A stretch of 64,000 nt of DNA from an uncultured Pseudobdellovibrionaceae bacterium. Lineage in GTDB: Bacteria; Bdellovibrionota; FAC87; UBA2466. Below are positions 3,086 to 35,325 of the stretch, piece by piece. Position 1 is the stretch's first letter. Every line of letters begins with the position of its first letter. The position numbers and the translations under genes are program-made. The DNA lies in assembly GCA_964396165.1 (NCBI GenBank), contig CAYNEF010000001.1, positions 65,990 through 129,989 on the forward strand, written 5' to 3'. Under the pieces are notes generated by a model, which did not search any database, was not told the origin of the DNA, and was given only the letters and a program-made list of their open reading frames with translations.

Positions 3086-3086
3086 C

Positions 3087-8735: not shown

Positions 8736-8752
8736 TAGTACCCTTCCTAACT

Positions 8753-18365: not shown

Positions 18366-18698
18366 CTATCCACACAAATAGGGACGAGAGCTGTTAGGCA
18401 CCTTACACATCCCACTGCATTTTTGCTGCGGATGTGCTACACGACATTCTTGTATCGCGAGATTGCAGGCGTTATTGGGACCGCTGGATGCGCCGGCTAC
18501 GGTATGCCATCCATGTTGGTCATTTTTTGTTTGCACACTACATTTTAGTTGCCAACGTAGTGACTCACTTTCCTCACTAGTTGAAATTTCGTTTGCAAAT
18601 ATATTTCCGGAGATAAAAATAAAGATTAAGCTTATATAGATAGATTTCATGGAATTATTCCTTTGATTGGGTAATGGCGCTTTACTAATCGATTTCAT
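18366..18698 (-). CDS. Small secreted cysteine-rich protein
   Basis: Probable start at the second Met (MKSIYISLIFIFISGNIFA signal peptide). 5 Cys. Confidence 0.45.
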   Translation of the reverse strand: MKSISKAPLPNQRNNSMKSIYISLIFIFISGNIFANEISTSEESESLRWQLKCSVQTKNDQHGWHTVAGASSGPNNACNLAIQECRVAHPQQKCSGMCKVPNSSRPYLCG

Positions 18699-19252
18699 TG
18701 TTTTTGGACATAGGGTTTAGGATGGGACACATCGTAATTTACTATTTCCCACCAGCATTGACAGGGATGTTGAGGACCGTAGTAATTGCATCGGAAAGCT
18801 TTTTTTCCAGTTTCCCTGATATAGAACAAGCTTAAACCACTTTCGGAATCTTTAAAAACATGCGCCTCAAAATTTCTATCCGTCGATGCTCCCCCACACT
18901 TACTTGTGGGGAAATAAAGCTGGGTAGTTCCACTAAATTTATTGCTTTCTGCCGCATCAGGTTTAAGTTTCACCTGAAATGAGGATGTAGCACCCGTAGT
19001 AAACTTACGAATTGCCCTTAGAATATAGCCATCTGATACAGCTTCAATTTTAGCAGGACCTTTAAAGTAGGGGCTTGGCTCTTCCCCATAGAGGTAAAGG
19101 CCAGAAGGGATTTCCGAAACAGGCACTTCCTCGTCTTGGTTGTTTCTCTGTTCAAACAGAGTAACTTCTGCGGTTTCTTGCTGAAAACTTTGAGATGAAC
19201 AAGGAAGGATAATTCCTAGAAAGATTAGTCCCCAGATCTTTAATGTTTTCAT
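18695..19252 (-). CDS. Secreted hypothetical protein
   Basis: Signal peptide. 4-bp overlap with the downstream small gene, suggesting an operon. Confidence 0.5.
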   Translation of the reverse strand: MKTLKIWGLIFLGIILPCSSQSFQQETAEVTLFEQRNNQDEEVPVSEIPSGLYLYGEEPSPYFKGPAKIEAVSDGYILRAIRKFTTGATSSFQVKLKPDAAESNKFSGTTQLYFPTSKCGGASTDRNFEAHVFKDSESGLSLFYIRETGKKAFRCNYYGPQHPCQCWWEIVNYDVSHPKPYVQKQ

Positions 19253-19393
19253 ATTCGCGGCCCCCTATGGTTTGTACTAAGTTAATTCTAATTAATGTTA
19301 AATTTTTACAGAATACAATCCCAACTGCACATTAATTTTTCTTTAACGCCCTTGCCATGGCCATATTAACTCATAGATGTTATTAGAATTGAT

Positions 19394-21622
19394 ATGACGC
19401 AAAAAAACTACGATAAGGCCGGTACTACCTCTCACTTGGAATTAAAGGTTCACGGAATGGATTGCGCTGAAGAAATCTCGGCCCTTAAACGAGAGATACT
19501 GCCTACTCTTGGGGAAAACGGGAATCTTTCCTTTGATCTACTGAACGGGAAAGTGTCCATTACCTCAGAAAAATTTATCCCATTGGAATCCATATTAGCT
19601 GCAATAAAAAAAACCGGGATGAAAGCCGAAATGTGGGACAAGGGACAAAAGCATCCACAAAAAGAATCTTGGTGGCAAAGCCATAGCCGCACAGCATCGA
19701 CATTGGCTAGCGCAACTTCCCTTTTAATTGGCTTTTTGCTCCATGCGCTCACTTCGAAAAATTTCCGGATCGCTTTTGGCGCTGAAGAAACTGGACAAAT
19801 ACATGATGTTCCTTACGCCGTACGCGGCTTTTATCTCTTTGCAATCGTCTCGGGAGGTTGGTTTATCCTTCCCAAGGCTTTTTATTCCTTAAAAAAATTT
19901 CGTCCCGATATGAATCTGCTCATGACCATCGCCGTGTGCGGCGCCATCCTGATTGGTGAATGGTTTGAGGCGGCGACAGTCGCATTTCTCTTCTCGCTTT
20001 CGTTATTGCTGGAATCCTGGAGTGTCGGCAAGGCAAGAAAAGCGATTCAATCTCTTATGGCTCTTACACCCTCTCGAGTGCATCTAAAGGATGTCTCCGG
20101 TGCACTTAAAGAAGTTGAGCCATCTGAAGTCCCTGTTGGATCTATTATTCTCGTTCGCCCCGGGGAAAAATTCGCTCTCGACGGCAAGATCATCTCAGGT
20201 TCTAGTTATGTCAATCAAGCTGCCATCACTGGGGAAAGCATTCCGGTTTTTAAAGATTCAAGCGCTGAAGTATTTGCGGGTACCGTGAATGGCGACGGAG
20301 CGCTTGAAGTAGAAACGACAAAGTTGGTTTCAGACACTATGCTTTCGCGTATTATTGGAATGGTTTCTGAAGCGCAATCGAAAAAGGGCCCTTCGGAGCA
20401 ATGGGTTGATAAATTTGCGGTAATATACACGCCGATAGTCTTAATGTTAGCGTGCGCTGTTTTATTTATCCCGCCACTCTTTCTAGAAGGCAACTGGACA
20501 GATTGGATTTATCGGTCTTTAGTCCTTTTAGTTATCGCTTGCCCATGTGCTTTGGTCATATCGACTCCCGTTAGTATCGTATCTGCATTAGCGGCGGCGG
20601 CTAAAAACGGGATTCTAATAAAAGGTGGAACTTATATAGAGGCCCCAGCTCATTTAAAAGCCATTGCTTTTGATAAGACCGGTACCTTAACCCAAGGCAA
20701 ACCAAGAGTGAGCGAAGTTATTCCCTTGGGAAACCATACTGAGGCTGAACTGCTAGCCCTTGCAGCCGGAATGGAAACGCATAGCGATCATCCCCTTGCG
20801 AAAGCAATAAGGGAACATGCGGAGCAAAGGGGAATTAAGCCTAGTGTCGCAACTGATTTTCAAACCATACAAGGGAAAGGAGCCACAGCTTTAATTAAGG
20901 GTCGAACTTATTGGCTTGGCTCCCACCGTTTTTTGGAAGAAAAGGGGCAGGAAACCCCAGAAGTGCATAAAGCCATAGAGGAGAAATCTTTCTCCGGAAA
21001 AAGTGTAGTAGTACTCGGCAATGAAACGCATGTGTGTGGTTTTATCGCTCTTAACGATTCTTTAAGATCGGGTGCGAGGAAAGCTATTGAAGATCTCAGG
21101 CAAAAAGGCGTTGAACGGCTGGTCATGCTGACTGGAGATAATAGGACAACCGCGAAAAATATTGGTGGGGAAGTCGGCGTTGATGAGGTCTTGTCCGAGT
21201 TACTGCCCTTGGACAAAGTAAAAAGTCTTGAAGCGCTTAATAATAGATACGGAACAACCGCTATGGTCGGGGACGGGATTAACGATGCTCCTGCATTGGC
21301 CGCTGCTACATTAGGTATCGCAATGGGGGTCACAGGAAGTGACGTCGCTCTTGAAACGGCTGATATCGCTCTCATGTCGGATGATCTTTCGAAGCTGCCT
21401 TGGCTTATCGACCACTCCAGAAAAACACTACGGATCATTCGGCAAAACATAACCGCTTCAATTTTTGTCAAAGCTGTCTTTGTGCTCCTTACCTTCCTTG
21501 GATATTCTTCTCTTTGGAGTGCAATCGCAGCAGATATGGGCGTCTCGCTTGCGGTTGTATTTAATGGGTTGCGGCTACTTAGCAATAATGTCGAAAATCA
21601 ATCCCCGATAACACTACGATAG
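19394..21622 (+). CDS. P1B-type heavy-metal ATPase (Zn/Cd/Pb, ZntA/CadA-like)
   Basis: N-terminal HMA-like domain, TM CPCALVISTP, DKTGTLT, SDHPLAKAI, GDGINDAP. The HMA motif is GMDCAEE, with only one Cys. Confidence 0.9.
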   Translation: MTQKNYDKAGTTSHLELKVHGMDCAEEISALKREILPTLGENGNLSFDLLNGKVSITSEKFIPLESILAAIKKTGMKAEMWDKGQKHPQKESWWQSHSRTASTLASATSLLIGFLLHALTSKNFRIAFGAEETGQIHDVPYAVRGFYLFAIVSGGWFILPKAFYSLKKFRPDMNLLMTIAVCGAILIGEWFEAATVAFLFSLSLLLESWSVGKARKAIQSLMALTPSRVHLKDVSGALKEVEPSEVPVGSIILVRPGEKFALDGKIISGSSYVNQAAITGESIPVFKDSSAEVFAGTVNGDGALEVETTKLVSDTMLSRIIGMVSEAQSKKGPSEQWVDKFAVIYTPIVLMLACAVLFIPPLFLEGNWTDWIYRSLVLLVIACPCALVISTPVSIVSALAAAAKNGILIKGGTYIEAPAHLKAIAFDKTGTLTQGKPRVSEVIPLGNHTEAELLALAAGMETHSDHPLAKAIREHAEQRGIKPSVATDFQTIQGKGATALIKGRTYWLGSHRFLEEKGQETPEVHKAIEEKSFSGKSVVVLGNETHVCGFIALNDSLRSGARKAIEDLRQKGVERLVMLTGDNRTTAKNIGGEVGVDEVLSELLPLDKVKSLEALNNRYGTTAMVGDGINDAPALAAATLGIAMGVTGSDVALETADIALMSDDLSKLPWLIDHSRKTLRIIRQNITASIFVKAVFVLLTFLGYSSLWSAIAADMGVSLAVVFNGLRLLSNNVENQSPITLR

Positions 21623-22174
21623 CAAATAATTTTTTACATGGCCCCTAAGCAGCCAGCCCAAGCGAAAGGAAAAGAAGCCTCCTAATAAAGCTCCTAAGGA
21701 CCAAGCTGCAATGAGGCTAGCAGGGATCGTATGTTCCACTTCCCCAACGGATAGAAAAAAACCCAATGACAAAAAAACCAAAAGAGCCCATTGAAGCAGC
21801 GGTGTTTTTCTAATTGCTCGAACTTCGTGCGTTCTCAAAAGAAAAGCTGCGACCAAACCCGTCCCTCCCAAAAAGACAGCTCCACAAGCGAGCATGCACC
21901 CATAAGATCCAAAGCTTGAAAAAAAGCTTAAAAGAAAATCATTTTCTTTGTGGATTGTGACTCCCAATTGTGGGCAGAAGAAAAGCGTGATCACGCCCGC
22001 TATAAAATGAATCGCGAATAACTTGCAGAAAACCTTCCAGATGGGTGGGTTGAGCTCGTCATGCAGTGTCCGTTTAATAAAAGCTGTAACGTCGGAGGGT
22101 GGTGTACTCCGGTCGGATTCCAAAAAGTACTGGTACTCTTTGTTCCAGTCGTCTTTTGAAAAATCTTTTTTCAT
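21614..22174 (-). CDS. Membrane anti-sigma factor (NrsF/DUF1109-like, multi-TM)
   Basis: Overlaps the ECF sigma stop by 4 bp. Cytoplasmic N-terminus followed by ~5 TM helices. Confidence 0.5.
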   Translation of the reverse strand: MKKDFSKDDWNKEYQYFLESDRSTPPSDVTAFIKRTLHDELNPPIWKVFCKLFAIHFIAGVITLFFCPQLGVTIHKENDFLLSFFSSFGSYGCMLACGAVFLGGTGLVAAFLLRTHEVRAIRKTPLLQWALLVFLSLGFFLSVGEVEHTIPASLIAAWSLGALLGGFFSFRLGWLLRGHVKNYLLS

Positions 22175-22794
22175 TTTTTTGCCCTCAATTTCTGTCCGTG
22201 CATTTTCACCTTCTTCAGAGCACGGCTAACCATTTGGCGCGCGTTTACAGGAGTCGTTTCAAGCCGTAACGCAATTTCCTCAAAAGAAAAATCGTTCCCG
22301 TACCTAAGCAGAAGCGCTTGTTTCTGTTCCTCGGAGAGTATTTTTAACCTTGCGGTATCTTCCAATAATACTGGCTCTAAATTGTGTTGTTCAGCCTGCA
22401 CGCTGGTGACAGTAGTTTTAGAAATCTCGATAGTTTTTTTACTTTCCCTCCCTTTGGATCGCAGTGCATCTATCATCACACTTCGACAGATCGTAAAAAG
22501 CCAAGGGAGCAACGGTAGCGGAGTACGATATTGCATGCGGGTCAGGTGAAACTTAAAAAAAGTGCCCTGAAAAATATCGTCCGCGAGCGCACTATCTGAA
22601 ATGCGCTTTCTCAAATAGCCTCGAACTAAATCCGCATTTCGATCGTAAAGCAGGTTGAATGCCATGGAATCCCCTTCCTGGTAGGCAATCATCAACTCCT
22701 CATCGGTTTTGGAACTGTAATCAATTTCACTCATACTTATTACGATCTGAGTCCACTTTTTTGTGACAAACCATTTAGCTACCACGGGAAGCAC
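22171..22794 (-). CDS. ECF-type RNA polymerase sigma-70 factor
   Basis: Region 2 (LLYDRNADLVRGYL...) and region 4 HTH (LLLRYGNDFSFEEIALRLETTPVNARQMVSRALKKV). Start may be the internal MSEIDYS. Confidence 0.8.
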   Translation of the reverse strand: MLPVVAKWFVTKKWTQIVISMSEIDYSSKTDEELMIAYQEGDSMAFNLLYDRNADLVRGYLRKRISDSALADDIFQGTFFKFHLTRMQYRTPLPLLPWLFTICRSVMIDALRSKGRESKKTIEISKTTVTSVQAEQHNLEPVLLEDTARLKILSEEQKQALLLRYGNDFSFEEIALRLETTPVNARQMVSRALKKVKMHGQKLRAKK

Positions 22795-22931
22795 TAAAAA
22801 ATCAAATACTTAGCAAATAATCCACTTTAAGTTAGAAATTCGTCACAAAAGCACACTGCGCTTCGTAACTATCTTCAAGAAGGGAAATCTTCGACAGCCA
22901 TTAACTATGGTTTAGAAGAAACGCTCAAAAA

Positions 22932-23294
22932 ATGCATAAAGGTCTGTTAAAATTTGTGGGAATTCTAGTAGGAAGTTCTCTTTTATTTGCTTATTTGTTT
23001 AGCTTTAAACAGTCTAAAACCGTAAGCAGTGAAAACCTTAAGTCTTCAAATGCTCAAACTTGTCAAATCTCGGAAATGACACCTACGTCTTGCTCAGGGG
23101 ATAAGGACGACCACGCTGGTTCTGCTGAAGATACTTCACACTGTCAAAAGCACTGCGGCCATGTTCATGCCGGACTTCTCTCAGATGCAAATCTGAATCT
23201 CACTTCACCAGACTCTAAAAAATCCATCGATTCCCCCGAAAAAACACCCGAAAACGTAATTCTCGATCCTGGCTCTCGTCCTCCCAATCTTTAA
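22932..23294 (+). CDS. Small membrane-anchored Cys/His-rich protein, possible metal binding
   Basis: N-terminal TM, then TCQISEMTPTSCSGDKDDHAGSAEDTSHCQKHCGHVHAG. Confidence 0.35.
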   Translation: MHKGLLKFVGILVGSSLLFAYLFSFKQSKTVSSENLKSSNAQTCQISEMTPTSCSGDKDDHAGSAEDTSHCQKHCGHVHAGLLSDANLNLTSPDSKKSIDSPEKTPENVILDPGSRPPNL

Positions 23295-23372
23295 AAATTA
23301 GTTTCCTGAAATTTATTAAAAACCAAGTCCATGAGTTTACGGTCATAAATACCTTACTCATAAAAATCAAAA

Positions 23373-23837
23373 TTGGAGATTAAACAAATGAAAACTTTAA
23401 ATCTATTAAGCGTTGGAATAATTATTACTTCTCTTTCAGCAAGCGTCAGCTATGCTCGCACAAGCTCAATCCGAGGTCGATTCGATCATAGCATGCGAAA
23501 ACCAGTACTCACTGACGTAAAGTGGACCGGAACATTCCGTTGTGAGGAGAAAAAACACGCAGTCGATCATGAGAAAAACCATGAATGCGATCTGGAATTT
23601 GTAAATGACGATACAAATGAAGTCTGGAACGTTAAAACCACAAAGGCTCTTGAGTCAATGCACCAACAATATGATGGGCCAATAAAAGCACAAATTGAAG
23701 CAGTGCGTTCCCCCCGTTATTTATTAGGAGGAAGTTATGTGGATATCAAAAATATCAAGCTCATGGACGGTGCGGTAAAAGACGATAAGCTTCCTGAAAG
23801 TAAAGATAACGAGAAAATGAGAAATGGCCGTATTTAA
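23373..23837 (+). CDS. Secreted hypothetical protein
   Basis: Signal peptide. No motif recognised. Confidence 0.45.
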   Translation: MEIKQMKTLNLLSVGIIITSLSASVSYARTSSIRGRFDHSMRKPVLTDVKWTGTFRCEEKKHAVDHEKNHECDLEFVNDDTNEVWNVKTTKALESMHQQYDGPIKAQIEAVRSPRYLLGGSYVDIKNIKLMDGAVKDDKLPESKDNEKMRNGRI

Positions 23838-23975
23838 TAATCAAACCGTTAAAAAATAGGCGTCCGAAAGGACGCTCTAAGGCCACTATTTCTGTCTACG
23901 GAACAGCGGAAATAGTGGCTTCTTTAATGCCATTCCGGCGGTGTTACAACGCTTGTAAAAAGGCAGGGAGAAAAA

Positions 23976-25235
23976 GTGCGTTTAAGCTTATCCAAAATAG
24001 CCAAAATAGTAACCATCCTGTTCTTGGTTTTGCCTCCAGTACGGGCCGAGGAGGAAGTTAAACCTGAAAAATGGACTTTAACCAAATTGCTTGAAAAGGC
24101 TTCGGCCAATTCTGCAACTGTTAAAGCTGCCGAAAAAGATTCTATTTCAGCTGAAAACCAAGCTTACCAAGCAGGCAAATGGGATAATCCGGAGGTCTCA
24201 GCAAACTTTGGCGAAAAATCCGATAGTAGCACTAAAGGAAACGTCTTTCAGGTTTCCCTGCTTCAAACCGTTCCTGTTTTCGGACAAAAAAGCATCTTGG
24301 AAAAAATAGGGAACCAGCAATTCCTCATTTCCCAAACTGAAAAACAAATCCAAAGCCTAATCCTTCAGCATGAGGTCGTAAAACGAGCTTACCGTCTCGC
24401 CGCGGTAGACGAACAAATGAAACATGTTTCCCATCGCAAGGATAAAATTCACCTAGTTGAACAATATTTAAAAAGCCGCCCCTTTGCCTCCCCCTCTCAA
24501 TTAGTGGAAAAAAGCCTGATAGAAAATCGCTTGCGAGAAATAGAAGAGAAATTTGTTCAAATTTCAGCGACAAGGGAAAAAGAATGGCAATCCTTGAACA
24601 TACTGCTCAACTTTTCTTCACCAATTTATCCCGAGCTAAATTGGTTTACCTCTCCTACTCTTCCTAACCGCGAAAGCCTACTTGAAAAAATACAAAAGGA
24701 TAATTTGGAGATCACTAAACAATCAAAGGTGGTTGCGACTTCAGAATTACAGATCGAGCAGGCAGGTAAAAAGGTTTATCCAGAGGTTCGAGTAGGGGGA
24801 GGATACAATCAAGAAATTTTGGGTACTACTGAAAAGTCTTACTATGGAATGCTTCAGCTCAGTATCCCTCTTCTAGACAGGGGGGGCTATGGGCTTGAAG
24901 CAGCAAAAGCCAAACGCGAAGCAGAGACTTACCGATTGGAGCAACAGCGACGCGAGACGGTTAGCAAGTTTGGAGAAGCGTGGGCTGAGCTGACTGAAGG
25001 GACAAGGCGACTAGAATTATTTCCACTGTCACTAGTCCCAAAACTTGAGAATCAAATGAAAGTCACCGAAGCAAATTGGCGAAAGGGATTAGTGCAAGTA
25101 GCGTCATTTCTCGAACTAGAAAACCAAGTACATGAACAAGCTGTAAAAGTATTTGATGCGCAAATGGCTTATGTCGAAGCTCTAAGTCACGTGCTTCTCT
25201 CGTCGGGACAGTCTTTTCCTGTGGAGGGAAAATAA
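23976..25235 (+). CDS. Outer membrane efflux protein (TolC/CzcC family)
   Basis: Signal peptide, OMF-like coiled-coil repeats. Stop is 1 bp before the RND ATG. Confidence 0.8.
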   Translation: MRLSLSKIAKIVTILFLVLPPVRAEEEVKPEKWTLTKLLEKASANSATVKAAEKDSISAENQAYQAGKWDNPEVSANFGEKSDSSTKGNVFQVSLLQTVPVFGQKSILEKIGNQQFLISQTEKQIQSLILQHEVVKRAYRLAAVDEQMKHVSHRKDKIHLVEQYLKSRPFASPSQLVEKSLIENRLREIEEKFVQISATREKEWQSLNILLNFSSPIYPELNWFTSPTLPNRESLLEKIQKDNLEITKQSKVVATSELQIEQAGKKVYPEVRVGGGYNQEILGTTEKSYYGMLQLSIPLLDRGGYGLEAAKAKREAETYRLEQQRRETVSKFGEAWAELTEGTRRLELFPLSLVPKLENQMKVTEANWRKGLVQVASFLELENQVHEQAVKVFDAQMAYVEALSHVLLSSGQSFPVEGK

Positions 25236-25236
25236 A

Positions 25237-28200
25237 ATGCTCAATACTCTTGTGGAATCAGGCCTTCGTAATCGTCTTTGGGTATTTTCCCTTTTTGGCG
25301 CGCTTGCACTCTTAGGAATCGGTGCAGTTATTAGCCTTCCTCTGGATGCTGTTCCAGATATAACGAATGTTCAAGTTGTTGTTAATACGAAAACAAATGC
25401 TTTAGATCCAGGAAAGATAGAAAAGCTCGTTACCTACCCCATCGAAACTGAGCTTTCGGGGATGCCGGGCGTTGAGCAAGTCCGATCTCTTTCCAAATAT
25501 GGGCTCTCCCAAGTAGTCGTTATTTTCGAGGAAGGCACCAATATCTATTTTGCGAGACAACTTGTTTCCGAGCGACTTCAAGGAGCGCGCGAAAATATTC
25601 CAAGCGGGCTCTCCCCCGAAATGGCTCCTGTTACAACCGGCCTTGGCGAAGTACTGATGTATGTGGTGACAGCAAAGCCAGGCTCTGATTTAGCGAAAAA
25701 AACCGAGAAAGAACAACTTTTATACTTGAGAGAGATGCAAGACTTTGTCATTCGCCCACAACTTAAAAAAATTACCGGTGTGGCTGACGTTGACACTAAC
25801 GGAGGATTCCTTAAAGAAGTGCATATCAACTTCGTTCCAGAACGCCTCGCCCACTTTGGGCTATCTTTGGATAAATTCATCACAAAGATCGATTCCCTAG
25901 GAGAAAGTTTCGGCGGAGGCTACATACAAAAAGAAGGGAATCAAGTAATAGTTCGGGCAACGGGCAAGGTGGCCGATCTTGAAACCATTTCCAACTTGCC
26001 ATTAAGTTTAAATGTAAGTGGAAAACCAATTCGGATAAAAGACGTTGCAGATGTAAGCGTTAATAGCGCTCTTCGACTGGGAGCTGCAACTTTTGGGGGT
26101 AAAGAAACGGTACTGGGCACAGTTCTCATGTTAATTGGTGGAAATAGTCGAGAAGTTTCCTCGCAAGCAGAAGACTTTTTAAAAAGAGAAATTCAGCTAC
26201 CGCAAGATGCTGACGTGAACATTGTTTATTCTCGAAGCCACCTTGTGGGCGCCACTATTCATACTATCCTTAAGAATCTCTTTGAAGGGGCGCTGCTAGT
26301 TGTCGTAGTCCTGTTACTTTTATTGGGCAATTTTAGAGCTGCCTTAACCGTTGCGCTTGCTATCCCAATCTCGATGCTTTTTGCGCTTAAAGGCATGGCA
26401 ATTTCCAAAATTTCAGCGAACTTGATGAGCCTTGGGGCAATTGATTTTGGGCTGCTTGTGGATGGTTCTGTCGTTCTCATTGAAAATATCGTTCGAAGAT
26501 TTGAAGAACTTCATGGAAAAGTTATCGATAAAAAAGAAAAACTGGAAATTGTATTAGAAGCAAGCCAAGAGGTTTTAAAACCCATCGTATTTGGACTTTT
26601 AATCATCATGCTAGTCTACGTACCCATCCTTTATTTAGAGGGTGTCGAAGGAAAAATGTTTAGACCAATGGCGGCAACGGTGCTTTTAGCTTTGGGCGCA
26701 AGTCTTATTGTTGCCTTGTTTCTTATGCCTGCATTGGCTTATTTCCTTATCCCCAGCAAAATTAAGGAAACAGAACCCTGGCTCTTTCGTATCATTAAAA
26801 ATCTTTATCAACCGTTGTTGAAGGTTAGTTTAAAGCAACGATGGATAGTCGGCGTTATTACGTTAATTCCAGCCACTCTCGCAATCTTTCTATTTTTTCA
26901 ACTGGGGTCTGATTTCGTGCCTCAGTTGGACGAAGGAGATTTAGTCATTAACCTTGCAAGGGAATCCCGGCAGGGAATAGACGAGTCGGTAATTCGCCAA
27001 AAACAGGCTGAGGAAATTATCGGGAGTTTTAAAGAGGTTGAATCCGTTTTTTCCCGAATGGGCACCCCTGAATCAGCCCTTGATCCTATGGGACCCTATT
27101 TAGCGGATACTTTTGTAATCTTGAAAAAGAATAAAAATGAATGGCCCCAAATATCAGGTAGAACGAGGACAAAAGAAGAACTGTTTGAGGCTATCAAAGT
27201 TGAGCTTGAAAAAAATAACCCGACCCAAGAAGTTTCACCTAATCAGCCCATTGCGATGCGATTTAATGAGATACTTGAGGGATCTCGAGCGGATATTTCC
27301 CTTAGAATTTATGGACCCGATCTGGACAAGCTTGTTGAATATTCAGAAAAGGCGCAAAAGATTTTGTCTGATATGAAAGGAATATCCTCCCTTGAATCAG
27401 ATCCTTTAACAGCCCTGACCAAAGGTCCAGTACTCGATGTGGTCTTGGACTACGAAAAAATGGCGCGCTTCGGACTTTCGCTTCGCGATGTGAATGGCGT
27501 TCTAGAGAGTGCGATGAGCGGACGTGAAGTCGGATCTTTTTACGAGGGAGATAGGAGGTTTGCTATCGTTCTACATCTTAAAGAAAGCTTAAGAAATGAC
27601 ATTTCTCAAATTGCCGCTGTTCCGGTAAGTCTTCCTGATGGGGGAACTATTCCTTTGTCATCCGTCGCTACCATTAGCGAACATGACCAGGTTACAACAG
27701 TCGCAAGAAGCGGTGCCAGAAGATATTCCGCGTTGTCTATTTTTCTTAAGGACAGGGATATTGCGAGTTTCGTTGTGGAAGCAAAAGAGCGAATTAAAAG
27801 CCAGTTGAATTTGGACTCAAATTATACGGTCGAATGGGGAGGACAATTCAAAAACTTGGAAAGAGCCCGCAAAACTCTCTTTATTATTATTCCAATTACA
27901 CTTCTTGTGATCTTTATTCTCCTACTAAAAAGTTTTGGTAACATTCGCCACTCACTGCTGGTTTTTAGCGCGATTCCATTCGCTGTAGTTGGGGGAGTAT
28001 TCGCACTTTATTTTAGAGGAATTAATTTTAGCGTCTCTGCAGCGGTAGGTTTCATTGCTTTAGCGGGTATCGCTACACTGAATAGTATGGTGATGGTAAG
28101 TTTCTTTAATCAACTTCGTGCTAAGGGAGAAGGGATAGAGGATACAATCTTTAAAGGCGCCCTTCTAAGGCTTCGTCCCGTTGCGATGACAGCGCTTGTA

Positions 28201-28392
28201 GCTAGCTTAGGGTTTCTTCCCATGGCATTAAATACCGGCATGGGCGCCGAAGTGCAACGCCCCCTTGCCACCGTTGTCATTGGCGGACTTTTCACCTCAA
28301 CAATTTTGACTCTTATTGTTGTACCTATATTATACGGCTGGATTGAGAAAAAGTTTGGCACGGAGAGTTCCACTCCAGTAGACCGCGTTTAA
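25237..28392 (+). CDS. Heavy-metal efflux RND transporter (CzcA/CusA family)
   Basis: 1051 aa. N-terminus ...DAVPDITNVQVVVNT...VTYPIE matches the HME-RND signature region. Confidence 0.9.
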   Translation: MLNTLVESGLRNRLWVFSLFGALALLGIGAVISLPLDAVPDITNVQVVVNTKTNALDPGKIEKLVTYPIETELSGMPGVEQVRSLSKYGLSQVVVIFEEGTNIYFARQLVSERLQGARENIPSGLSPEMAPVTTGLGEVLMYVVTAKPGSDLAKKTEKEQLLYLREMQDFVIRPQLKKITGVADVDTNGGFLKEVHINFVPERLAHFGLSLDKFITKIDSLGESFGGGYIQKEGNQVIVRATGKVADLETISNLPLSLNVSGKPIRIKDVADVSVNSALRLGAATFGGKETVLGTVLMLIGGNSREVSSQAEDFLKREIQLPQDADVNIVYSRSHLVGATIHTILKNLFEGALLVVVVLLLLLGNFRAALTVALAIPISMLFALKGMAISKISANLMSLGAIDFGLLVDGSVVLIENIVRRFEELHGKVIDKKEKLEIVLEASQEVLKPIVFGLLIIMLVYVPILYLEGVEGKMFRPMAATVLLALGASLIVALFLMPALAYFLIPSKIKETEPWLFRIIKNLYQPLLKVSLKQRWIVGVITLIPATLAIFLFFQLGSDFVPQLDEGDLVINLARESRQGIDESVIRQKQAEEIIGSFKEVESVFSRMGTPESALDPMGPYLADTFVILKKNKNEWPQISGRTRTKEELFEAIKVELEKNNPTQEVSPNQPIAMRFNEILEGSRADISLRIYGPDLDKLVEYSEKAQKILSDMKGISSLESDPLTALTKGPVLDVVLDYEKMARFGLSLRDVNGVLESAMSGREVGSFYEGDRRFAIVLHLKESLRNDISQIAAVPVSLPDGGTIPLSSVATISEHDQVTTVARSGARRYSALSIFLKDRDIASFVVEAKERIKSQLNLDSNYTVEWGGQFKNLERARKTLFIIIPITLLVIFILLLKSFGNIRHSLLVFSAIPFAVVGGVFALYFRGINFSVSAAVGFIALAGIATLNSMVMVSFFNQLRAKGEGIEDTIFKGALLRLRPVAMTALVASLGFLPMALNTGMGAEVQRPLATVVIGGLFTSTILTLIVVPILYGWIEKKFGTESSTPVDRV

Positions 28393-28518
28393 GATACTAT
28401 GTCATTATCTGAACACACTCATTCTAAACTCTAATCTAGGTATTGCAAATTCTTCCTATAGAGAATATGTTCAAAAAAAATCAGGGCCGGGTACAACCTT
28501 CTTGATTTTCAAAGACGG

Positions 28519-28551
28519 AATGGGGGCTATGAAAATAGCTCCCATTTTTTA
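28519..28551 (+). terminator. Rho-independent terminator after the RND gene
   Basis: aatgggggctat-gaaa-atagctcccatt followed by tttttt. Confidence 0.5.
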
Positions 28552-28587
28552 TTAATATCTTAAATAGCAAAAAGTAAGGCTAGAAAA

Positions 28588-28803
28588 TTAGGGACGCTTC
28601 CGTCTCTTTAACCATACTAATACTTCCGAAGTTTGGTACCGTACCGCTCTCCCTATTTTAAAATAGGGAAGTCCGTCATCTACCATGAGTTTATTGATAT
28701 AGCTTACAGAGATAGCTAATCTTTCTGAAAGTTGATCCTTTGTAACCAAAAACTCTGACTCGCTGAATATGGGGCTAGGTTTTTGCACTTCAGTTGAACG
28801 CAT
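28588..28803 (-). CDS. AlpA/Xis-family excisionase-like DNA-binding protein
   Basis: LSERLAISVSYINKLMVDDGLPYFKIGRAVRYQTSEVLVWLKRR resembles the AlpA prophage regulatory HTH. Confidence 0.55.
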   Translation of the reverse strand: MRSTEVQKPSPIFSESEFLVTKDQLSERLAISVSYINKLMVDDGLPYFKIGRAVRYQTSEVLVWLKRRKRP

Positions 28804-29079
28804 TTTATTTCTTCAAAAAAAGATTTTTCACTCATATAGGAATTTATTGGCAACAGAAATCGAAAGTTTACAATTCCTCCCGCAACAACGCAACGAATCA
28901 TACCACCTTTTTATCACTAACTCCTAGCTAAGCGAGCCAAAAGAGAATCCGGAGGACTGAAGTCCTATTAGTTATGGAAGTGCCCGACTTACCTATACAA
29001 ATGAAAAGCACGGAAAGCTGGGTGGCAATTATTGGACTGATTTAAAGACAACTGGCCCGCTAACACTATTTAAGAAATC

Positions 29080-29499
29080 TTAGTCGGAGCTATGCTCCTG
29101 TGCGAAAGCTTCGATTCTGGATTTAAGTTCATCTCGAACTTTTCGAAAACGACTTAACTCTTCTTCTTCAGAGCCCCCTTTGCCAGCAGGATCAGGCAAA
29201 GGCCAATGCACTTTAGTTGCCCTAGAAACCATCTGTGGGCACACTTCTTCCGCGCATAAAGTAATCACATAATTTAAACTAGCAATGAATCCCGGATGCA
29301 AGTCATCGTATGACTTAGAGTGATGACTGGTAATGTCGATACCAATCTCATTCAGCGTCTTTATGGCACTGGGATTTACTTTCGACGGTGCAGATCCCGC
29401 GCTCTCCACTTTCACGCTTTTATCGAATATCTTTTTAGCAAGGCCTTCTGCCATTTGGCTCCTTGCTGAATTTGCGACACACATAAATAGAATATTCAT
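29080..29499 (-). CDS. arsC: Arsenate reductase, LMW-PTP (thioredoxin-coupled) family
   Basis: CX5R P-loop CVANSARS plus downstream Cys pair (LCAEEVCPQ). Confidence 0.85.
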
Positions 29500-30569
29500 A
29501 ATAGTTTCTCCTCAAAGCGTCTTTTTCTCAACCAAAAGGCAGCCTGGACAAGCGAGATCAGTACCGGCACCTCAACCAAAGGTCCTATAACAGTCGCGAA
29601 TGATGCCCCATGCGCTATTCCGAAAGTCGCAATCGCTACCGCAATCGCTAGTTCAAAGTTATTCGAAGCGGCTGTAAAAGATAGACTGGTTGCTTCTCGA
29701 TAATTCGCGCCAGCCTTTTGACTTAATATGAATGATAAAAAGAACATTACTACGAAATAGATGGCGAGTGGAATCGCTATACGTAAGGTGTCTACTGGTA
29801 AGGCGAGGACCGTATCCCCTTTTAAAGAAAACATAACCTCAATTGTGAATAAGAGTGCCGCTAAAGTTATCGGACTGATCCGAGGAATAAACTCCTTGTC
29901 GTACCAATCAATTCCTTTTGTAGGTCGCAAGATAAGTCTTGTAATAAAACCAGCCGAGAAAGGGATGCCTAGGTAAATACCTACTGATTTTGCGATATCC
30001 CAAATCGTTACATGCAATTGTAGACTTTGGAGTCCTAACCAACTTGGAAATAGAGTTAAAAAGAGATAGGCATAGAAAGGAAAGAATAGGATTTGAAAAA
30101 TAGAATTAAGAGCGACGAGCCCGGCGCAGTACTCGGCACTTCCTTCCGCAAGTTCATTCCATACGATAACCATGGCTATGCAACGGGCAATTCCCATTAG
30201 CATTAACCCTGCCATATACTCAGGTTTGTCTTTTAAAAAAATAATGGCCAGAAAAAACATGAGCAAGGGTCCGATAAGCCAATTTTGAATTAGGGAGAGA
30301 GCTAGGATTTTTTTATTACGGAAAACCTCTCCTAATTTTTCGTACTGCACCTTCGCCAAAGGGGGATACATCATAAGGATCAATCCTACGGCGATAGGAA
30401 TTGAAGTCGTTCCCAAACTAAATTGAGTAAGGGCTTTCCCCAGTTGTGGCGCAAATACACTTATGACTAACCCCAGGCCCATGGCCAAAAAAATCCAAAG
30501 GGTTAAGTATCTATCTAAAAAAGAAAGTTTCTTGGTTTTCATGGCAGGTATCATTGGCATTAGCAACAC
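29496..30569 (-). CDS. acr3: Arsenite efflux permease, ACR3 family
   Basis: 357 aa, 10 TM, ACR3-like conserved segments. 4-bp overlap with arsC. Confidence 0.85.
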
Positions 30570-31000
30570 TTAGCGGCTGTTGAACAAGCGTTTGCTTTTG
30601 GAACCAACCTTGGCGGTTCTGTTCCGACCGCGGGTAACTGTTCGTGTACAAAAAAGACTTCCCATGAGTTCCCATCCGGATCTTGAAACCAAAATTTGTC
30701 TTGCTTCGCAAAGCAGCAATCCGTTGCTTCCTCTATCAACGTTGGGATGTTTTTCGCAGAAAGATTTTTTTGCCACTCCTTCACTTCATCAACGCTCTCG
30801 ACCTCAATACCAAGATGGTTCACATGACTTGCTTTTCTGCCATCTACCGCTTCATGCATGGCAAAGTTCAGAGCTAGCGTCTTTAAATCAAATTTTGCAT
30901 AGGTTGCAGATTGTTTTTGAGGTTCTACTCCAAATACAGTTCGATAGAAATCTACTGATTTTTTTAAGTTCAATACATTAATAGATAGATGTGGTCTCAT
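30560..31000 (-). CDS. VOC/glyoxalase-fold protein with vicinal Cys pair (ArsI-like C-As lyase / CadI-like)
   Basis: Start taken at MRPHLSIN with RBS aaggag 6 nt upstream. TDCCFA vicinal cysteines, C-terminal CSTAAKCC. Confidence 0.55.
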
Positions 31001-31010
31001 TCGGTCTCCT

Positions 31011-31409
31011 TTAACAACCTTTTTCAAAGCAATCGAAAATTCGGCACTCTCGCATGGATTGCTCTCCCTCACCGCAAACTTTTGAAAGTCGGAAAAGAGA
31101 AGCTTTCATCTGCTTCAGATCCTCAATCTTTTTACGAATCTCCTGGATCTTCTCATTGGCCTTTTCTTGTACCTGGGCACCAGTAATTTTTCGCTTGGAT
31201 TGTATATCCAAGAGTTCTTTTACTTCCCGTAAGGTAAACCCAAGTTCCTGAGCACGCTTAACAAAGCGAACACGGGAGGCCTCATCGTTTGTATAGAGCC
31301 TAAAACCGCCATCACGGCGTTGGGGCTTTTTGATTAGCCCCTTCCGCTCATAAAAACGAATGGTTTCAACTCCTACACCGGCGAGCTTAGCTAATTTTCC
31401 AATCGTCAT
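31011..31409 (-). CDS. MerR-family metal(loid)-responsive transcriptional regulator
   Basis: HTH MTIGKLAKLAGVGVETIRFYERKGLI, coiled-coil, C-terminal Cys cluster (CGEGEQSMRECRIFDCFEKGC). Start at the internal Met. Confidence 0.75.
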   Translation of the reverse strand: MTIGKLAKLAGVGVETIRFYERKGLIKKPQRRDGGFRLYTNDEASRVRFVKRAQELGFTLREVKELLDIQSKRKITGAQVQEKANEKIQEIRKKIEDLKQMKASLFRLSKVCGEGEQSMRECRIFDCFEKGC

Positions 31410-31430
31410 ATCCACACCTAACACCCTACA

Positions 31431-31450
31431 CTCCGTACCATAGTACGGAG
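31431..31450. promoter_or_regulatory. Perfect 20-bp dyad CTCCGTACCATAGTACGGAG inside a MerR-type promoter (TTGACT, 19-20 bp spacer, TAGGGT)
   Basis: Seen directly in the sequence, 22 bp upstream of the merR-like start. Confidence 0.45.
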
Positions 31451-31665
31451 TCAATGGTAATCTTGATTTGAGCCAATTATTCAGTTTGAAGCAGGAATTG
31501 GACATTGATTCCTACAGAACGTACATTTTACTAGACAAAGACTTTTCCACCACTAGGCACATATTTTCAAATGGAAAGATTGTTTACGCTTCAAACGTGG
31601 GACGATTGCACCGTAGGGTTAGAAGATCAGCTTAATATTATTAGCTTTTGATTTCTAGTATATAT

Positions 31666-32460
31666 CTATTCAAAATGTGAGTGATCAAGTTCATACTTGT
31701 TTGTTATGTTGAAATTAAGACGGCCTGTATTTTCTTCGAAAATAATTAAATTATTTTTAGTTTGGGTTCTTGCGCTTGCATACAAAATGCCTTTATATCC
31801 TTTTTTTCGAGCTACTACACCTAAGATTTGACTAGCACTGGGAATTTCAAATTGTTGGTTAAGATCGAACCACTCATTCATCACAACACTTCTAGGTATT
31901 TTCAGAGCTTTGAATGTCGGATCAGCAGTTAAAACTAATATATTATCCAGATCGACTTCAAATTCAAAAAACCAGTACTTAGGCATTTTAAATTCACTTT
32001 CTATTTCTTCCTTTTTTCTTCCGATTAATTGCGCATAATTATTCTTTTGTATATCTAAATGGAACAGCTCTGCATAACAACATTCTTTACTCTGACTCAA
32101 ATACAAAACTCGATTACGCATTTCTGCAACGTTTTTGTAGTTAAACCGTGAATTTGAAAACAATGATCCTTCACCAGACAAGGGCTCGCTGCTGTATGCT
32201 TCTTTAACAATTCGGAAAAAATTTGTTTTCTTGTCTTTATAAGAGCATTTGGCAGCGGAGGAAAAATCTAGCTCTGATAAGCTATCTAATTCTGCCTTTA
32301 ATCTAAGCTCTTGCCTTTGGAGAAATTTTTTCTTCGATCCCTCTGTTGCGAACTCATCTTCAACATCTGCAACAGTGTTTCGTAAGTACCACTTACAAAA
32401 AGCATCTACCTCTGAGGGATTAGTAAAACACACCCCATCAAGGACACTAAAATCGTACAC
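31666..32460 (-). CDS. RES-domain toxin (ParT/MbcT-like)
   Basis: SNSRFNYKN...VLYLSQSKECCYAELF...GILYASARTQ carries the RES Arg/Glu/Ser signature layout. Immediately downstream of the Xre/ParS antitoxin. Confidence 0.6.
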   Translation of the reverse strand: MYDFSVLDGVCFTNPSEVDAFCKWYLRNTVADVEDEFATEGSKKKFLQRQELRLKAELDSLSELDFSSAAKCSYKDKKTNFFRIVKEAYSSEPLSGEGSLFSNSRFNYKNVAEMRNRVLYLSQSKECCYAELFHLDIQKNNYAQLIGRKKEEIESEFKMPKYWFFEFEVDLDNILVLTADPTFKALKIPRSVVMNEWFDLNQQFEIPSASQILGVVARKKGYKGILYASARTQTKNNLIIFEENTGRLNFNITNKYELDHSHFE

Positions 32461-32462
32461 TA

Positions 32463-32885
32463 TTAACCCAGACGTTGTTCGAGGATATTTCTGACTTGGC
32501 GAGTTTTTCCTTTAAGCATAAATTCTAGCGCACTTTTATCATCAAATTCCGGTCTAGGCATTTTAAGCCAACGCTGCATCTTCACTTTAATGGCAGTGGG
32601 CGCAAGCTCGGATTCTGACTCTCCGATAATTTTAATGATCAAATTAAATATTAATAACCACTGCTTCAGGGTTTGGTTCTGTGACGCGTAAGGATTTTTG
32701 CTTATTTTAGACTCATCTAAATGAAAACTTTCAGCAATCTGCTTTTGCTTTATATCCAATAATTCCGCAAGTCGCTTAAGGTTCACTTCGGTAGGATTTT
32801 CTTGTGTGTATAAGTCTTCTAATACATCTAAATCTTTAAAAGAGTTAGATGTTGAATCCTTAGTGTCTTTCTTGCTCATTTGCAC
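32463..32885 (-). CDS. Xre-HTH / ParS-MbcA type antitoxin (DUF2384-like C-terminus)
   Basis: HTH LKRLAELLDIKQKQIAESFHLDESKISK, then a C-terminal helical domain ending ...ALEFMLKGKTRQVRNILEQRLG. Confidence 0.6.
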   Translation of the reverse strand: MQMSKKDTKDSTSNSFKDLDVLEDLYTQENPTEVNLKRLAELLDIKQKQIAESFHLDESKISKNPYASQNQTLKQWLLIFNLIIKIIGESESELAPTAIKVKMQRWLKMPRPEFDDKSALEFMLKGKTRQVRNILEQRLG

Positions 32886-33385
32886 TCCAAATTCATTAGT
32901 GAATACCTATAACCTACTAGCATCCACATTTCAATATAGGTGCAATTATTGTGCAATTGCATGGCAATACTTTTATAATTTAATTATATCACTAACTAAT
33001 TGATTTTAATGATAATATCATAACACACTGCTCATATAGCACTATATACCATACAAAAACAGTGTCAAATTTCATCATTTTGCCTGTATTTTATACACTA
33101 ATGAGATTGTCTTTTTTAGTGCATTAAAAGAGTAACTTTTAGGAAGAACCTTTTAAGGGCAGTCACTACTTCCGTATCCTTTAATTCTGCTTATGATGAC
33201 AAGTTTACCCTGTTTAATATGGGTGAGCCCGAGGGGAAAAAGATCGTAGATTTTTTCAAGTTTAATAATGTCGAAGTGTCGGTGGCAGCCAAGCTTTATT
33301 CAAACTGCCCTAGATGAAAATAAACGATAGCTTCTATTTTTTTACGAGTTACTGACCCCGACGAGTATTGGAAAACTACCCAAAA

Positions 33386-33420
33386 GGTTGCACCGAGGGT
33401 TGCACCAAGGTTGCACGAGA
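33386..33420. repeat. Three tandem copies of a 12-bp unit GGTTGCACC(G/A)AG
   Basis: Seen directly, ~110 bp upstream of the tRNA-like gene inside an ORF-free AT-rich stretch. Confidence 0.6.
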
Positions 33421-33532
33421 TCCCAAGAAAGACCGAAATTAGCCGAAAAATTCCGAAGGAAGGTACGTTTGACAGACTGGCCTAACCCATAGTAATTATT
33501 GTTTTAAGTTAATTGTATTGGACAGTTAATGA

Positions 33533-33604
<72 letters not shown>

Positions 33605-33676: not shown

Positions 33677-35047
33677 CTAAGGTCTAAAAATACCACCAGT
33701 GTTGATTGTTCCACTGGAATCTTGTCCTCCAAACACTACCATCTTGGTGCCCGTCCATATTGCGGTATGAGCGTTGCGGATAGAGGGAGCAGTCGTAGTA
33801 GTAATTGTCGTCCAGGAGTTAGTAGTAGGATTAAATAGTCCGCCGGTGTTGTTATACACAGTGCTTCCGTCATCCCCTGCAAATACGAGAAGCTGAGTAC
33901 CTGTCCAAATACCTGTATGATAATAACGAATGCTTGGGGCGCCGGTAGTTGTAGTGAGAGTCCAAGAGTTGGCGCTTAAGTCATATACGCCACCTGTATT
34001 GATTCCACTTGTACCGTCCCACCCTCCAAACACCACCATTTTTGTCCCAGTCCAAACAGCACTATGTATCCGACGAATGTCCGGAGCACCTGTAGTGGTA
34101 GACAGCGTCCAGGTATCTGTCGCAGGATCATATGCGCCACCCGTATTTAAGAAAAGGCCCGCGCCTCGATCGCCTCCAAATAGTAAAGCTTTTTCGCCTG
34201 TCCAATTAGCAGTGTGATTTGCACGTATGCCAGGAGCACCTAACGTAGTCGTAGCTGTCCATGTATCGGTTGCGGGATTATATAGTCCACCCGTGTTTAC
34301 CCTCCCACCACCACCTCCTCCTCCGTGCACAAACATTTTACTTCCAGTCCATGTAGCCGTATGTAACCGGCGAATGCTAGGTGCGGCAGTTGTCGAGAGT
34401 GCACTCCAAGTATCAAGTTGCGGATCATAACTGCCACCCGTATTGAGATAAGCCCCATTGTATCCACCAAAGACAAGCATCTTAGAATCTGTCCAAACTG
34501 CAGAATGGTATGCACGAATATCGGGAGCACCGGTTGTAGTAATCTCTGTCCAAGAGTCAGTAGATGGATCGTATGCCCCTCCAGTATTGAGATAACTACT
34601 TGCAACTCCCTGTCCTCCGAACACTAATACTTTTGAGCCTGTCCAGACTGCCGTATGCACATAGCGAATAGCTGGAGCGCCCGTGGTCGTACTGGAAATC
34701 CACTTGGCAAAATAAGTAAATAAACCAGTGCCGGTTCCGCTTTGAGTATCCGGATTAGTAACGGTGATGTCAGCACTTCCTGCCGTGCCGCCTGGAGTTG
34801 TACACGTAATGGTGTAGTAATTGACGATCGTGGGTGAAGTACAGGGACTGCCTGCTACAGTTACTGTTGCATTGAGAGAAAAACCGAGGCCGGTTATTGT
34901 AATAACTGTTCCGCCAAAAGTGGAATCAGTCTCTGGGGTCACGCTAGTTACGGTAGGCGCTGGTGCAATAGTGCTTGATGAACTAGTTACTCCATTGCCA
35001 CAACCAGATATTAGTAAGAGATTTAAAAAAAAATAAACTATCTTCAT
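33677..35047 (-). CDS. Lipoprotein with IPT/TIG domain and about seven Kelch-like beta-propeller repeats
   Basis: Lipobox LISGCG. IPT-like TVTSVTPETDSTFGGTVITITGLGF. Repeats GAP.IR..HTA.WTG.KM.VFGG...NTGG.Y.P.TD.W. Confidence 0.7.
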   Translation of the reverse strand: MKIVYFFLNLLLISGCGNGVTSSSSTIAPAPTVTSVTPETDSTFGGTVITITGLGFSLNATVTVAGSPCTSPTIVNYYTITCTTPGGTAGSADITVTNPDTQSGTGTGLFTYFAKWISSTTTGAPAIRYVHTAVWTGSKVLVFGGQGVASSYLNTGGAYDPSTDSWTEITTTGAPDIRAYHSAVWTDSKMLVFGGYNGAYLNTGGSYDPQLDTWSALSTTAAPSIRRLHTATWTGSKMFVHGGGGGGGRVNTGGLYNPATDTWTATTTLGAPGIRANHTANWTGEKALLFGGDRGAGLFLNTGGAYDPATDTWTLSTTTGAPDIRRIHSAVWTGTKMVVFGGWDGTSGINTGGVYDLSANSWTLTTTTGAPSIRYYHTGIWTGTQLLVFAGDDGSTVYNNTGGLFNPTTNSWTTITTTTAPSIRNAHTAIWTGTKMVVFGGQDSSGTINTGGIFRP

Positions 35048-35325
35048 CATTTCGGTTAGACGCATATTTTTTAAGTCCTGCTTATTTAAAAACTAATGTA
35101 TCTATATCGTCTCCTCGGAGAATCTTATTTATAGTTGGATAATGCGAATATAAACACAATTCTGGTACGAACGGTAGAGCTGCTGTGGGCACCTCAACGG
35201 GGAGGGCAATTACCAAGTTGAGGTGTGAGGTGGTGGGCCGATGTCGATTTTCCTACTCCCGAGCTGCCATGATTTAGACAAGAAGTAATCTTACTAAGGA
35301 CAAAGTCAAAAGATCTAAATCCTGT

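Follow-up and report, generated by a model that had tools for sequence, protein, structure and literature searches.

A conserved two-gene heavy-metal RND efflux cassette without a linked adaptor gene in Bdellovibrionota and Leptospirales

A periplasmic adaptor is regarded as the obligatory third part of every efflux machine of the resistance-nodulation-division (RND) family in double-membraned bacteria. This adaptor, the membrane fusion protein (MFP), spans the gap between the two membranes and opens the exit duct; in metal pumps, it also contributes to ion delivery. In the closest described heavy-metal efflux (HME) systems, ZneCAB and CzcCBA of Cupriavidus metallidurans, the adaptor (ZneB or CzcB) is needed and encoded beside the RND gene. 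CusCFBA of Escherichia coli, a Cu/Ag pump of the same HME-RND family with a dedicated outer-membrane factor (OMF), relies on the adaptor CusB and additionally has the chaperone CusF. Here, we analyzed a 64,000-nucleotide stretch of DNA (hereafter the window) from an uncultured Pseudobdellovibrionaceae bacterium (assembly GCA_964396165.1, contig CAYNEF010000001.1, positions 65,990 to 129,989), which encodes an OMF and an RND antiporter of this kind, termed OMF2 and RND2, in direct succession and with nothing adaptor-like within 2 kb on either side. A sequence-only reading had described the two genes as a CzcC-CzcA-like pair 1 bp apart and without an adaptor, which was borne out: the OMF is an intact TolC-fold protein, the RND a TIGR00914 member, and no MFP was detected in the 64 kb. 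The two genes represent a genuine and well-conserved variation on a known system, namely an HME-RND/OMF cassette without a linked adaptor.

OMF2 (23976-25235, + strand; GTG start, 419 aa) is a TolC/CzcC-like outer-membrane factor, resembling CzcC in size and TolC in fold. It has a signal peptide, lacks a lipobox and any extra domain, and contains the two OEP repeats expected of this family (PF02321 in two stretches, E 1.4e-22 in Pfam). An AlphaFold (AF2) model based on 31 homologs reached a mean predicted local distance difference test score (pLDDT) of 87.4 and a predicted template modeling score (pTM) of 0.76. The modeled protomer consists of helices of up to 63 residues and four barrel strands, arranged in the repeated strand-strand-long helix-helix pattern of TolC. 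Foldseek aligned it over ~410 columns with TolC, SilC, CusC, and OprM (template modeling (TM) scores 0.71-0.78, E ~1e-15 to 1e-17), with 0.77 for TolC and 0.71-0.73 for SilC and CusC, in agreement with a TolC fold.

RND2 (25237-28392, + strand; ATG start, 1051 aa) is a CzcA/ZneA-type heavy-metal RND antiporter, and an identical protein (P0041) is present in the protein collection that we searched. Its Pfam match to ACR_tran spans practically the whole model (positions 17-1019 of 1021, E 4e-267). On TIGR00914 ('CusA/CzcA family') it scores 1115.7 bits at a cutoff of 701.45, residues 1-1040 covering model positions 1-1039 of 1051, which identifies a full-length CusA/CzcA heavy-metal efflux RND permease (TCDB 2.A.6.1). 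RND2 is not IhpA of the divalent metal exporter IhpABC, as it reaches 39.6 bits on NF045679 at a cutoff of 650. Among solved structures, ZneA (4k0e, 576 bits) and CusA (521 bits) are the closest.

The translation of RND2 contains the motif DFGLLVDGSVVLIEN (longer stretch AIDFGLLVDGSVVLIEN) in transmembrane helix 4 (TM4). It is of the divalent-cation type (DFG-DG-EN) and is kept in the consensus of both the adaptor-less RND clade described below and its canonical relatives; by the motif definition of Nies 2003, it is the Asp-Asp-Glu proton relay of divalent HME pumps. This distinguishes RND2 from CusA, in which the TM4 motif and the methionine cluster are those of a monovalent-metal pump. Furthermore, acidic residues of RND2 line up with ZneA E136, D602, and E610, presumably the metal sites assigned by Pak et al. 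2013. Similarity to ZneA and the genomic context (P-type ATPase, ars, MerR) make the divalent metals Zn, Co, and Cd the likely substrates, as they are for ZneCAB and CzcCBA.

The TAA of OMF2 and the ATG of RND2 are separated by a single nucleotide. The junction (25219-25239, + strand) reads GTGGAGGGAAAATAA-a-ATG and includes a GGAGG Shine-Dalgarno sequence within the OMF2 3' end, so that the ribosome-binding site of RND2 lies inside the OMF2 gene. This position together with the 1-nt gap argues for translational coupling of the two genes. A terminator-like hairpin found by consensus scan only (28517-28548, + strand; 14 pairs followed by a T-run, 125 nt past the RND2 stop) likely marks the end of the transcription unit. 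The OMF2-RND2 stretch has the same base composition as the remaining window (~42-44% GC), and a promoter scan was uninformative (10 hits, 10.6 expected).

We searched for an adaptor in the 64-kb window and, at related loci, in up to 10 kb of flanking sequence on each side. Of the 51 window open reading frames (ORFs) that encode 150 aa or more, Pfam covered 47 (48 ORFs in all) and revealed no HlyD or other MFP family, and NCBIfam likewise gave no MFP match. We then used a profile hidden Markov model (HMM) of heavy-metal-type MFPs built from 31 adaptors of canonical relatives. Run unfiltered at maximum sensitivity, it found no match in the six frames of the window, nothing at E <0.67 in a 647-kb six-frame translation of the window and related loci, and none in 69 kb of three further loci (L147-L149). 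For L150 and L151, the absence of an MFP is taken solely from precomputed Pfam annotation. No recurrent HlyD family appeared among 123 flanking ORFs of 285-500 aa scanned with Pfam, and no HlyD in nine neighborhoods with precomputed Pfam annotation to 10 kb on each side. Measured against tripartite CBA-type HME systems (CzcCBA, CusCBA, ZneCAB), the locus thus has the OMF and RND genes together and lacks the MFP gene in the operon. The same profile does pick up OMF-fused, reduced MFP domains (27-36 bits). Since it recognizes degenerate adaptors of this kind, its silence at the other loci is meaningful.

All-vs-all clustering of 34 loci identified no third conserved gene, only the OMF and the RND being shared. 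Directly upstream of the OMF, related loci encode heterogeneous genes, including LuxR-type regulators, unrelated enzymes, and spurious ORFs. Small proteins with weak hits, one encoded upstream of OMF2 (p154, E=2) and others from related loci (L002, L014), were considered as adaptors and rejected: their alignments to the MFP HMM comprise only the signal peptide and His/Glu-rich low-complexity sequence.

To place the pair among its relatives, we scanned one genome per species, which yielded 80 loci, and evaluated them by gene maps and an OMF profile. Wherever the RND was at least 48% identical to RND2, the OMF gene was directly followed by the RND gene with no adaptor (30/30 informative loci, meaning those with upstream DNA present; three further loci of the 33 begin at a contig edge). 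The gap between the two genes ranged from -23 to +18 bp. Host labels of the 33 loci were Bdellovibrionota (14), Leptospirales/Spirochaetota (18), and unclassified (1), and the best RND relative (69% identity) belongs to a Bacteriovoracaceae metagenome-assembled genome (MAG). Through the protein collection, we found eight further loci with OEP and ACR_tran but no HlyD, giving ~38 adaptor-less loci altogether. In one of these (L147, from a MAG labeled Elusimicrobia), the gene upstream of the RND lacks a Pfam entry, and a clade HMM alone identified it as an OMF of the adaptor-less clade (E 2e-63). The sequence-only reading had held that the missing adaptor was not an accident, and the comparative synteny agrees with it on this point.

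RNDs that were 41-47% identical to RND2 showed the order OMF-MFP-RND in 45/45 informative loci, from Alphaproteobacteria, Bacteroidota, Planctomycetota, and one Bdellovibrionales MAG (L057). L044 was left out of this count, its RND gene beginning at a contig edge. Four members of this canonical clade (L041, L042, L058, L062) at first appeared to lack an MFP; six-frame searches found the MFPs, and the apparent absences were artifacts of ORF picking or contig ends. In a neighbor-joining tree, the adaptor-less RNDs formed a single clade, sister to the canonical clade, and both assessable loci of the deeper outgroup carry MFPs. The OMFs formed a matching clade, scoring >280 bits on the clade HMM versus ≤156 bits for canonical OMFs. 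Gene order and tree together show one large monophyletic HME-RND branch whose operon has lost the adaptor gene.

Inside the adaptor-less RND clade, Bdellovibrionota and Leptospirales sequences are intermixed, showing a module that, judged by its phylogeny, has spread between the two groups. The additional loci lie in contexts as different as metal islands with P-type ATPases, a site beside TraC/TrbC conjugation genes, and housekeeping neighborhoods; P-type ATPases neighbor the module in L082 and L148 as well. As phyla are intermixed and the contexts are varied and in part mobile, the trait belongs to the two-gene module and not to the host lineage. Of the proposal that the arrangement is a lineage feature, the conserved trait was upheld; its tie to a host lineage was not, because the clade intermixes phyla, the contexts are unrelated, and the Bdellovibrionales MAG L057 carries a canonical operon.

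Both genes are under strong purifying selection: for the three unsaturated pairs, dN/dS (the ratio of nonsynonymous to synonymous substitution rates) was 0.05-0.07 for the RND and 0.12-0.18 for the OMF. At least 120 clusters (90% identity) are at least 55% identical to RND2. The OMF-family profile retrieved 334 representatives of 50%-identity clusters at E ≤1e-30, and among its best 150 matches 147 were new proteins, 85 of which score within the range of the adaptor-less clade. These searches show a large adaptor-less family, whose cassette is a self-contained and translationally coupled two-gene unit. One related locus (L015) seemed to encode an OMF of 656 aa (513-2483) resembling a domain fusion. 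In this ORF, a MurI-like (glutamate racemase) frame reads without a stop into the OMF, and we rejected the fusion as probably a sequencing or assembly artifact.

Our full-text literature searches yielded no description of adaptor-less OMF-RND modules, and reports on Leptospira offer circumstantial support that adaptor-poor RND loci are common there. L. interrogans has at least 14 acrB loci and acrA in only two of them (PMC4956267), and a RAST survey listed 3-6 AcrB-like genes in many Leptospira species and MFPs in only two species (PMC11435864). In L. interrogans biofilm, moreover, an adjacent tolC-acrB pair is induced together with metal-stress genes (PMC11442865).

The OMF-family profile also uncovered a third architecture, an OMF joined to a reduced MFP. 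Two such proteins, P0245 (666 aa; L152, 1528-3528) and P0264 (756 aa; L153, 689-2959), consist of a complete OMF, a His-rich linker, and ~200 C-terminal residues that match the MFP profile at positions 26-94 and 197-307 (36 and 27 bits). The ~100 skipped profile positions correspond to the lipoyl and alpha-hairpin domains, while the beta-barrel and membrane-proximal parts are kept; precomputed Pfam annotation lists CzcB_C, YknX_C, and RND-MFP_C. In both loci an RND gene follows directly. The L153 RND (802 aa, cut by the contig end) is ~43% identical to the adaptor-less and canonical clades alike and so represents a third lineage of similar depth; for the L152 RND, only 139 residues were available. 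As judged from these domain matches, the HME sub-family includes a form whose adaptor is cut down to its RND-proximal domains and tethered to the exit duct. As the MFP part has no hairpin, this assembly cannot use hairpin-to-OMF tip contacts, which suggests that such contacts were abandoned in the sub-family before the adaptor was lost completely. In the literature that we searched, this tripartite-in-two-genes architecture is undescribed.

The nearest described parallel to these fusions is BesABC of the spirochete Borrelia burgdorferi, an RND pump whose hairpin-less adaptor cannot reach the OMF tip. BesA differs in being a separate protein that keeps its lipoyl, beta-barrel, and membrane-proximal domains, and Bes is a drug-type (HAE1) pump, whereas OMF2-RND2 has no linked adaptor at all. 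Reviewers reconcile the hairpin-less BesA only with direct RND-OMF binding and consider it incompatible with tip-to-tip models (PMC4446572; PMC8277102).

The comparisons above, all drawn from sequence, show a conserved, selected, and mobile two-gene module without a linked adaptor and are compatible with more than one mode of coupling between the two proteins. The reading that we favor, although we judge the case for it to be evenly balanced, is that OMF2-RND2 would function without a dedicated classical adaptor, through direct or transient OMF-RND coupling. The RND trimer would take divalent cations at the conserved acidic sites and, powered by the TM4 Asp-Asp-Glu proton relay, pass them to the OMF trimer, whose conserved periplasmic tips would dock on, or be opened by, the RND itself, directly or transiently. 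The variable and partly mobile contexts and the crossing between phyla favor this reading, as a pump in need of a cognate adaptor that was left behind would not survive transfer. In addition, the periplasmic tips (~residues 166-175 and 368-376) are the most conserved parts of the OMF, with conservation equal to or above that in canonical OMFs (z of the tip-2 core -1.33 vs -0.63).

Several observations count against direct or transient coupling. We know of no characterized HME-RND pump, be it Czc, Cus, or Zne, that does without its MFP. The OMF tips remain constrained by gating or by a partner, and this partner could equally be an unlinked protein. In both proteins, we saw no insertion particular to the clade and no additional domain that could stand in for the adaptor, and the OMFs are free of notable indels. 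The crown hairpin tips of the RND are not more conserved in the adaptor-less clade than in canonical pumps. The docking domain is even less conserved relative to the porter domain than in the sister clade (Mann-Whitney p 5e-5, with approximate domain borders taken from AcrB and alignment columns that are not independent). Such relaxation would fit the loss of an adaptor formerly seated there, and it is unlike what a tight, co-evolving RND-OMF interface should display. Furthermore, with a search reaching over 64 kb and flanks of up to 10 kb, an unlinked adaptor elsewhere in the genome would be compatible with the data. Finally, the tolC-acrB pair of L. interrogans may lie outside the adaptor-less clade.

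Length differences between the RND clades were considered as features of adaptor loss and discarded. Relative to the sister clade, adaptor-less RNDs lack 23 aa after ~residue 147 and a further 16 aa at the tip of the DC hairpin. ZneA is shorter still at the first site (RND2-ZneA alignment) and also has a short DC hairpin; the differences look like insertions in the sister clade.

The strongest competing explanation is a normal tripartite pump whose adaptor acts in trans, the MFP being an orphan or borrowed from another operon. We consider this unlikely on balance, though well worth keeping in view. It accords with the need for an MFP in every HME-RND pump studied, and it would account for the high conservation of the OMF tips, which in canonical pumps are the sites for the MFP hairpin tips, as well as for an RND and an OMF without structural novelty. 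Potential donors are also at hand: a few acrA genes do exist in Leptospira genomes, and the Bdellovibrionales MAG L057 has a canonical operon. AcrD of E. coli is the known precedent for an RND with an unlinked MFP, its gene likewise lacking an accompanying MFP gene. AcrD, however, also has no OMF gene of its own and borrows AcrA and TolC from the system of a close paralog, whereas RND2 is translationally coupled to a dedicated OMF in an arrangement that defines a clade across phyla. MFP-RND pairing is generally specific, with sharing known only among close paralogs, and unrelated, mobile contexts and phylum crossing are hard to square with a specific unlinked partner. No MFP was found within ~8-10 kb at ~38 loci or in a 64-kb window holding two such pumps, and the RND docking domain, the seat of the MFP, is less constrained than in the canonical sister clade.

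Alternatively, the two proteins could work uncoupled, with the RND alone moving ions from the cytoplasm or inner leaflet to the periplasm and the OMF serving independently, perhaps as a constitutively leaky exit, with no stable complex between them. Purified CzcA alone reportedly transports Zn, Co, and Cd in proteoliposomes (Goldberg et al. 1999), and both the relaxed docking domain and the crown, whose conservation is not raised, would agree with such a mode. We nevertheless regard it as improbable. Strict OMF-RND adjacency, translational coupling, and an OMF clade that diverges along with the RND argue for a stoichiometric physical partnership, TolC-type channels are generally closed at rest, and the OMF tips are strongly conserved.

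A small protein of the periplasm without homology to MFPs could also serve as bridge or activator, and we see even less prospect for this explanation. Two candidates lie directly upstream of OMF2, both secreted and rich in metal ligands. p154 (23373-23837, + strand) is a small His/Cys/Glu-rich protein without a Pfam, NCBIfam, or PDB match, and its likeness to designed 'Cake' repeat proteins in phmmer was dismissed for want of a significant stretch. p120 (22932-23294, + strand) is likewise small, rich in Cys and His (HCQKHCGHVH), and hydrophobic in a segment at its N terminus; by its composition, it may bind metal, and it has no family match. A homolog of p154 does occur in the operon region of L002 (23% identity), the only one among the related loci, and p120 has none there. 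The two proteins are thus absent from 32/33 related genome loci, including the closest (L023), which makes p154 a neighbor and not a conserved partner. In addition, a stem-loop (23882-23919) with a perfect 11-bp inverted repeat, GCCACTATTTC ... GAAATAGTGGC, and a 16-nt loop separates p154 from the OMF2 start; it has no Rfam match and could be a p154 terminator, an attenuator, or an operator.

The same role could be played in trans by a protein of the type of p184 (3087-3641, - strand; 184 aa), a small His-rich protein of the second adaptor-less locus in the window (locus 1). Other adaptor-less HME modules (locus 1, L150) always have a protein of 131-190 aa beside the RND, and a locus-1-like module adjoins an OMF2-RND2-type pair in two other genomes. 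Features of p184 include a signal peptide, the invariant motif HEGHDMPG..P..PHGG, a disordered linker rich in His, and a confidently predicted beta domain. This ordered domain best matches copper-binding CrdA of Helicobacter pylori (Foldseek E 7e-4), and p184 has no profile similarity to MFPs (hhalign probability 16%). Going by the predicted structure, it looks like a metallochaperone and not a bridge. In H. pylori, the periplasmic metal-binding protein CrdA is small and, as with p184, its gene accompanies those of an OMF and an HME-RND, with the difference that the CrdAB-CzcBA system keeps the adaptor CzcB (PMC12319023), and locus 1 has none.

That the pair is the decaying, non-functional remnant of a tripartite operon that lost its adaptor, the condition under which the sequence-only reading would have been overturned by pseudogenes, has nothing beyond the missing MFP to recommend it and is hardly credible, as both genes are full length with all motifs, dN/dS is 0.05-0.18, and the arrangement is kept in hundreds of sequence clusters.

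If OMF2-RND2 does function without a dedicated adaptor, the clade could represent a widespread family of true two-component trans-envelope RND pumps, in which the RND trimer itself receives and opens a TolC-type channel in the absence of a periplasmic adaptor, the family having arisen by stepwise reduction from a canonical MFP through an OMF-tethered, hairpin-less MFP to none. We put this forward tentatively and would incline to doubt it at present. If true, such a family would offer a natural instance of 'direct docking', a mode of assembly since given up for AcrAB-TolC. The adaptor-less clade and the fusions with an adaptor stump form a natural series for asking how far the adaptor is really needed and whether RND and OMF dock directly, and the fused stump hints at a route of adaptor loss. 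The two-gene cassette makes this long-standing question testable. For annotation, it follows that 'incomplete' efflux operons in Leptospira (pathogens included), Bdellovibrionota, and their relatives should not be dismissed as non-functional, and that counts of RND, MFP, and OMF genes would mislead pump inventories in these groups.

Within the window, OMF2-RND2 is part of a metal and metalloid resistance cluster (18695-33601). Upstream of the pair, it comprises a P-type metal ATPase (19394-21622, + strand), a 186-aa protein (21614-22174, - strand), and an extracytoplasmic function (ECF) sigma factor (22171-22794, - strand) with a putative anti-sigma factor, the sigma factor lying upstream of p120. 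Downstream of RND2 follow an HTH_17 (excisionase-like) protein, ArsC, and ACR3, and the cluster also holds a glyoxalase-family protein, MerR, and a RES-Xre toxin-antitoxin pair. With its end near a tRNA (33533-33601), the cluster is a possible genomic island; we saw no integrase. This tRNA was the only hit of Rfam at gathering threshold across the whole window, which gave no riboswitch or other RNA regulator.

Locus 1 (1787-6772), whose lack of an adaptor the sequence-only reading had also noticed, indeed contains no MFP. It consists of RND1 (3638-6772, - strand), the second HME-RND of the window, p184, which overlaps RND1 by 4 bp, and OMF1 (1787-3193, - strand; OEP, E 6e-39). The order RND-small protein-OMF is kept in 13/13 metagenome relatives of RND1 at 55-79% identity, with a p184-like protein overlapping the RND stop in all 13, and relatives at 27-32% identity have the canonical order OMF-MFP-RND. 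RND1 and RND2 are distant from each other, relatives of one being ~27-32% identical to the other, and belong to different HME clades, both without an MFP.

The two loci, ~17 kb apart in the window, had been called independent. This holds insofar as they belong to different clades, but full independence does not, as two other genomes have a locus-1-like module at a distance of 2-5.5 kb from the pair. In L149 (8764-23156), such a module stands 5.5 kb from an OMF2-RND2-type pair; its RND is 69% identical to RND1, and homologs of p184, p239, p275/p411, and OMF1 are present. In L150 (1842-13153), the module is ~2 kb from the pair in divergent orientation, its RND is 37% identical to RND1, and tblastn found no p184 or OMF1 homolog. 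Both modules consist of an RND, a protein of 157-190 aa, and an OMF, without an MFP. A functional link between locus-1-type and OMF2-RND2-type modules is possible.

Upstream of RND1, three genes occupy 6784-9580 (- strand): p239 (6784-7503), p411, and p275. None of them has a Pfam match or is an OMF; p411 and p275 have N-terminal signal sequences and are paralogous (39% identical). Homologs of the three are found upstream of an RND1-like gene in L086, L091, and L149. Locus 1 is bordered by a gene for a Fur-family regulator just downstream of OMF1 (1247-1756, - strand) and by a response regulator and histidine kinase pair just upstream (9680-11691, + strand), which are likely its metal-responsive regulators.

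Elsewhere in the window lie genes for secreted trypsin-like proteases as well as for a Kelch/TIG and a malectin/fn3 protein (441-1211, 13049-13636, 33677-35065, 35607-38522). Together with the RND relative in Bacteriovoracaceae, these proteins suggest a predatory member of the Bdellovibrionota as the source.

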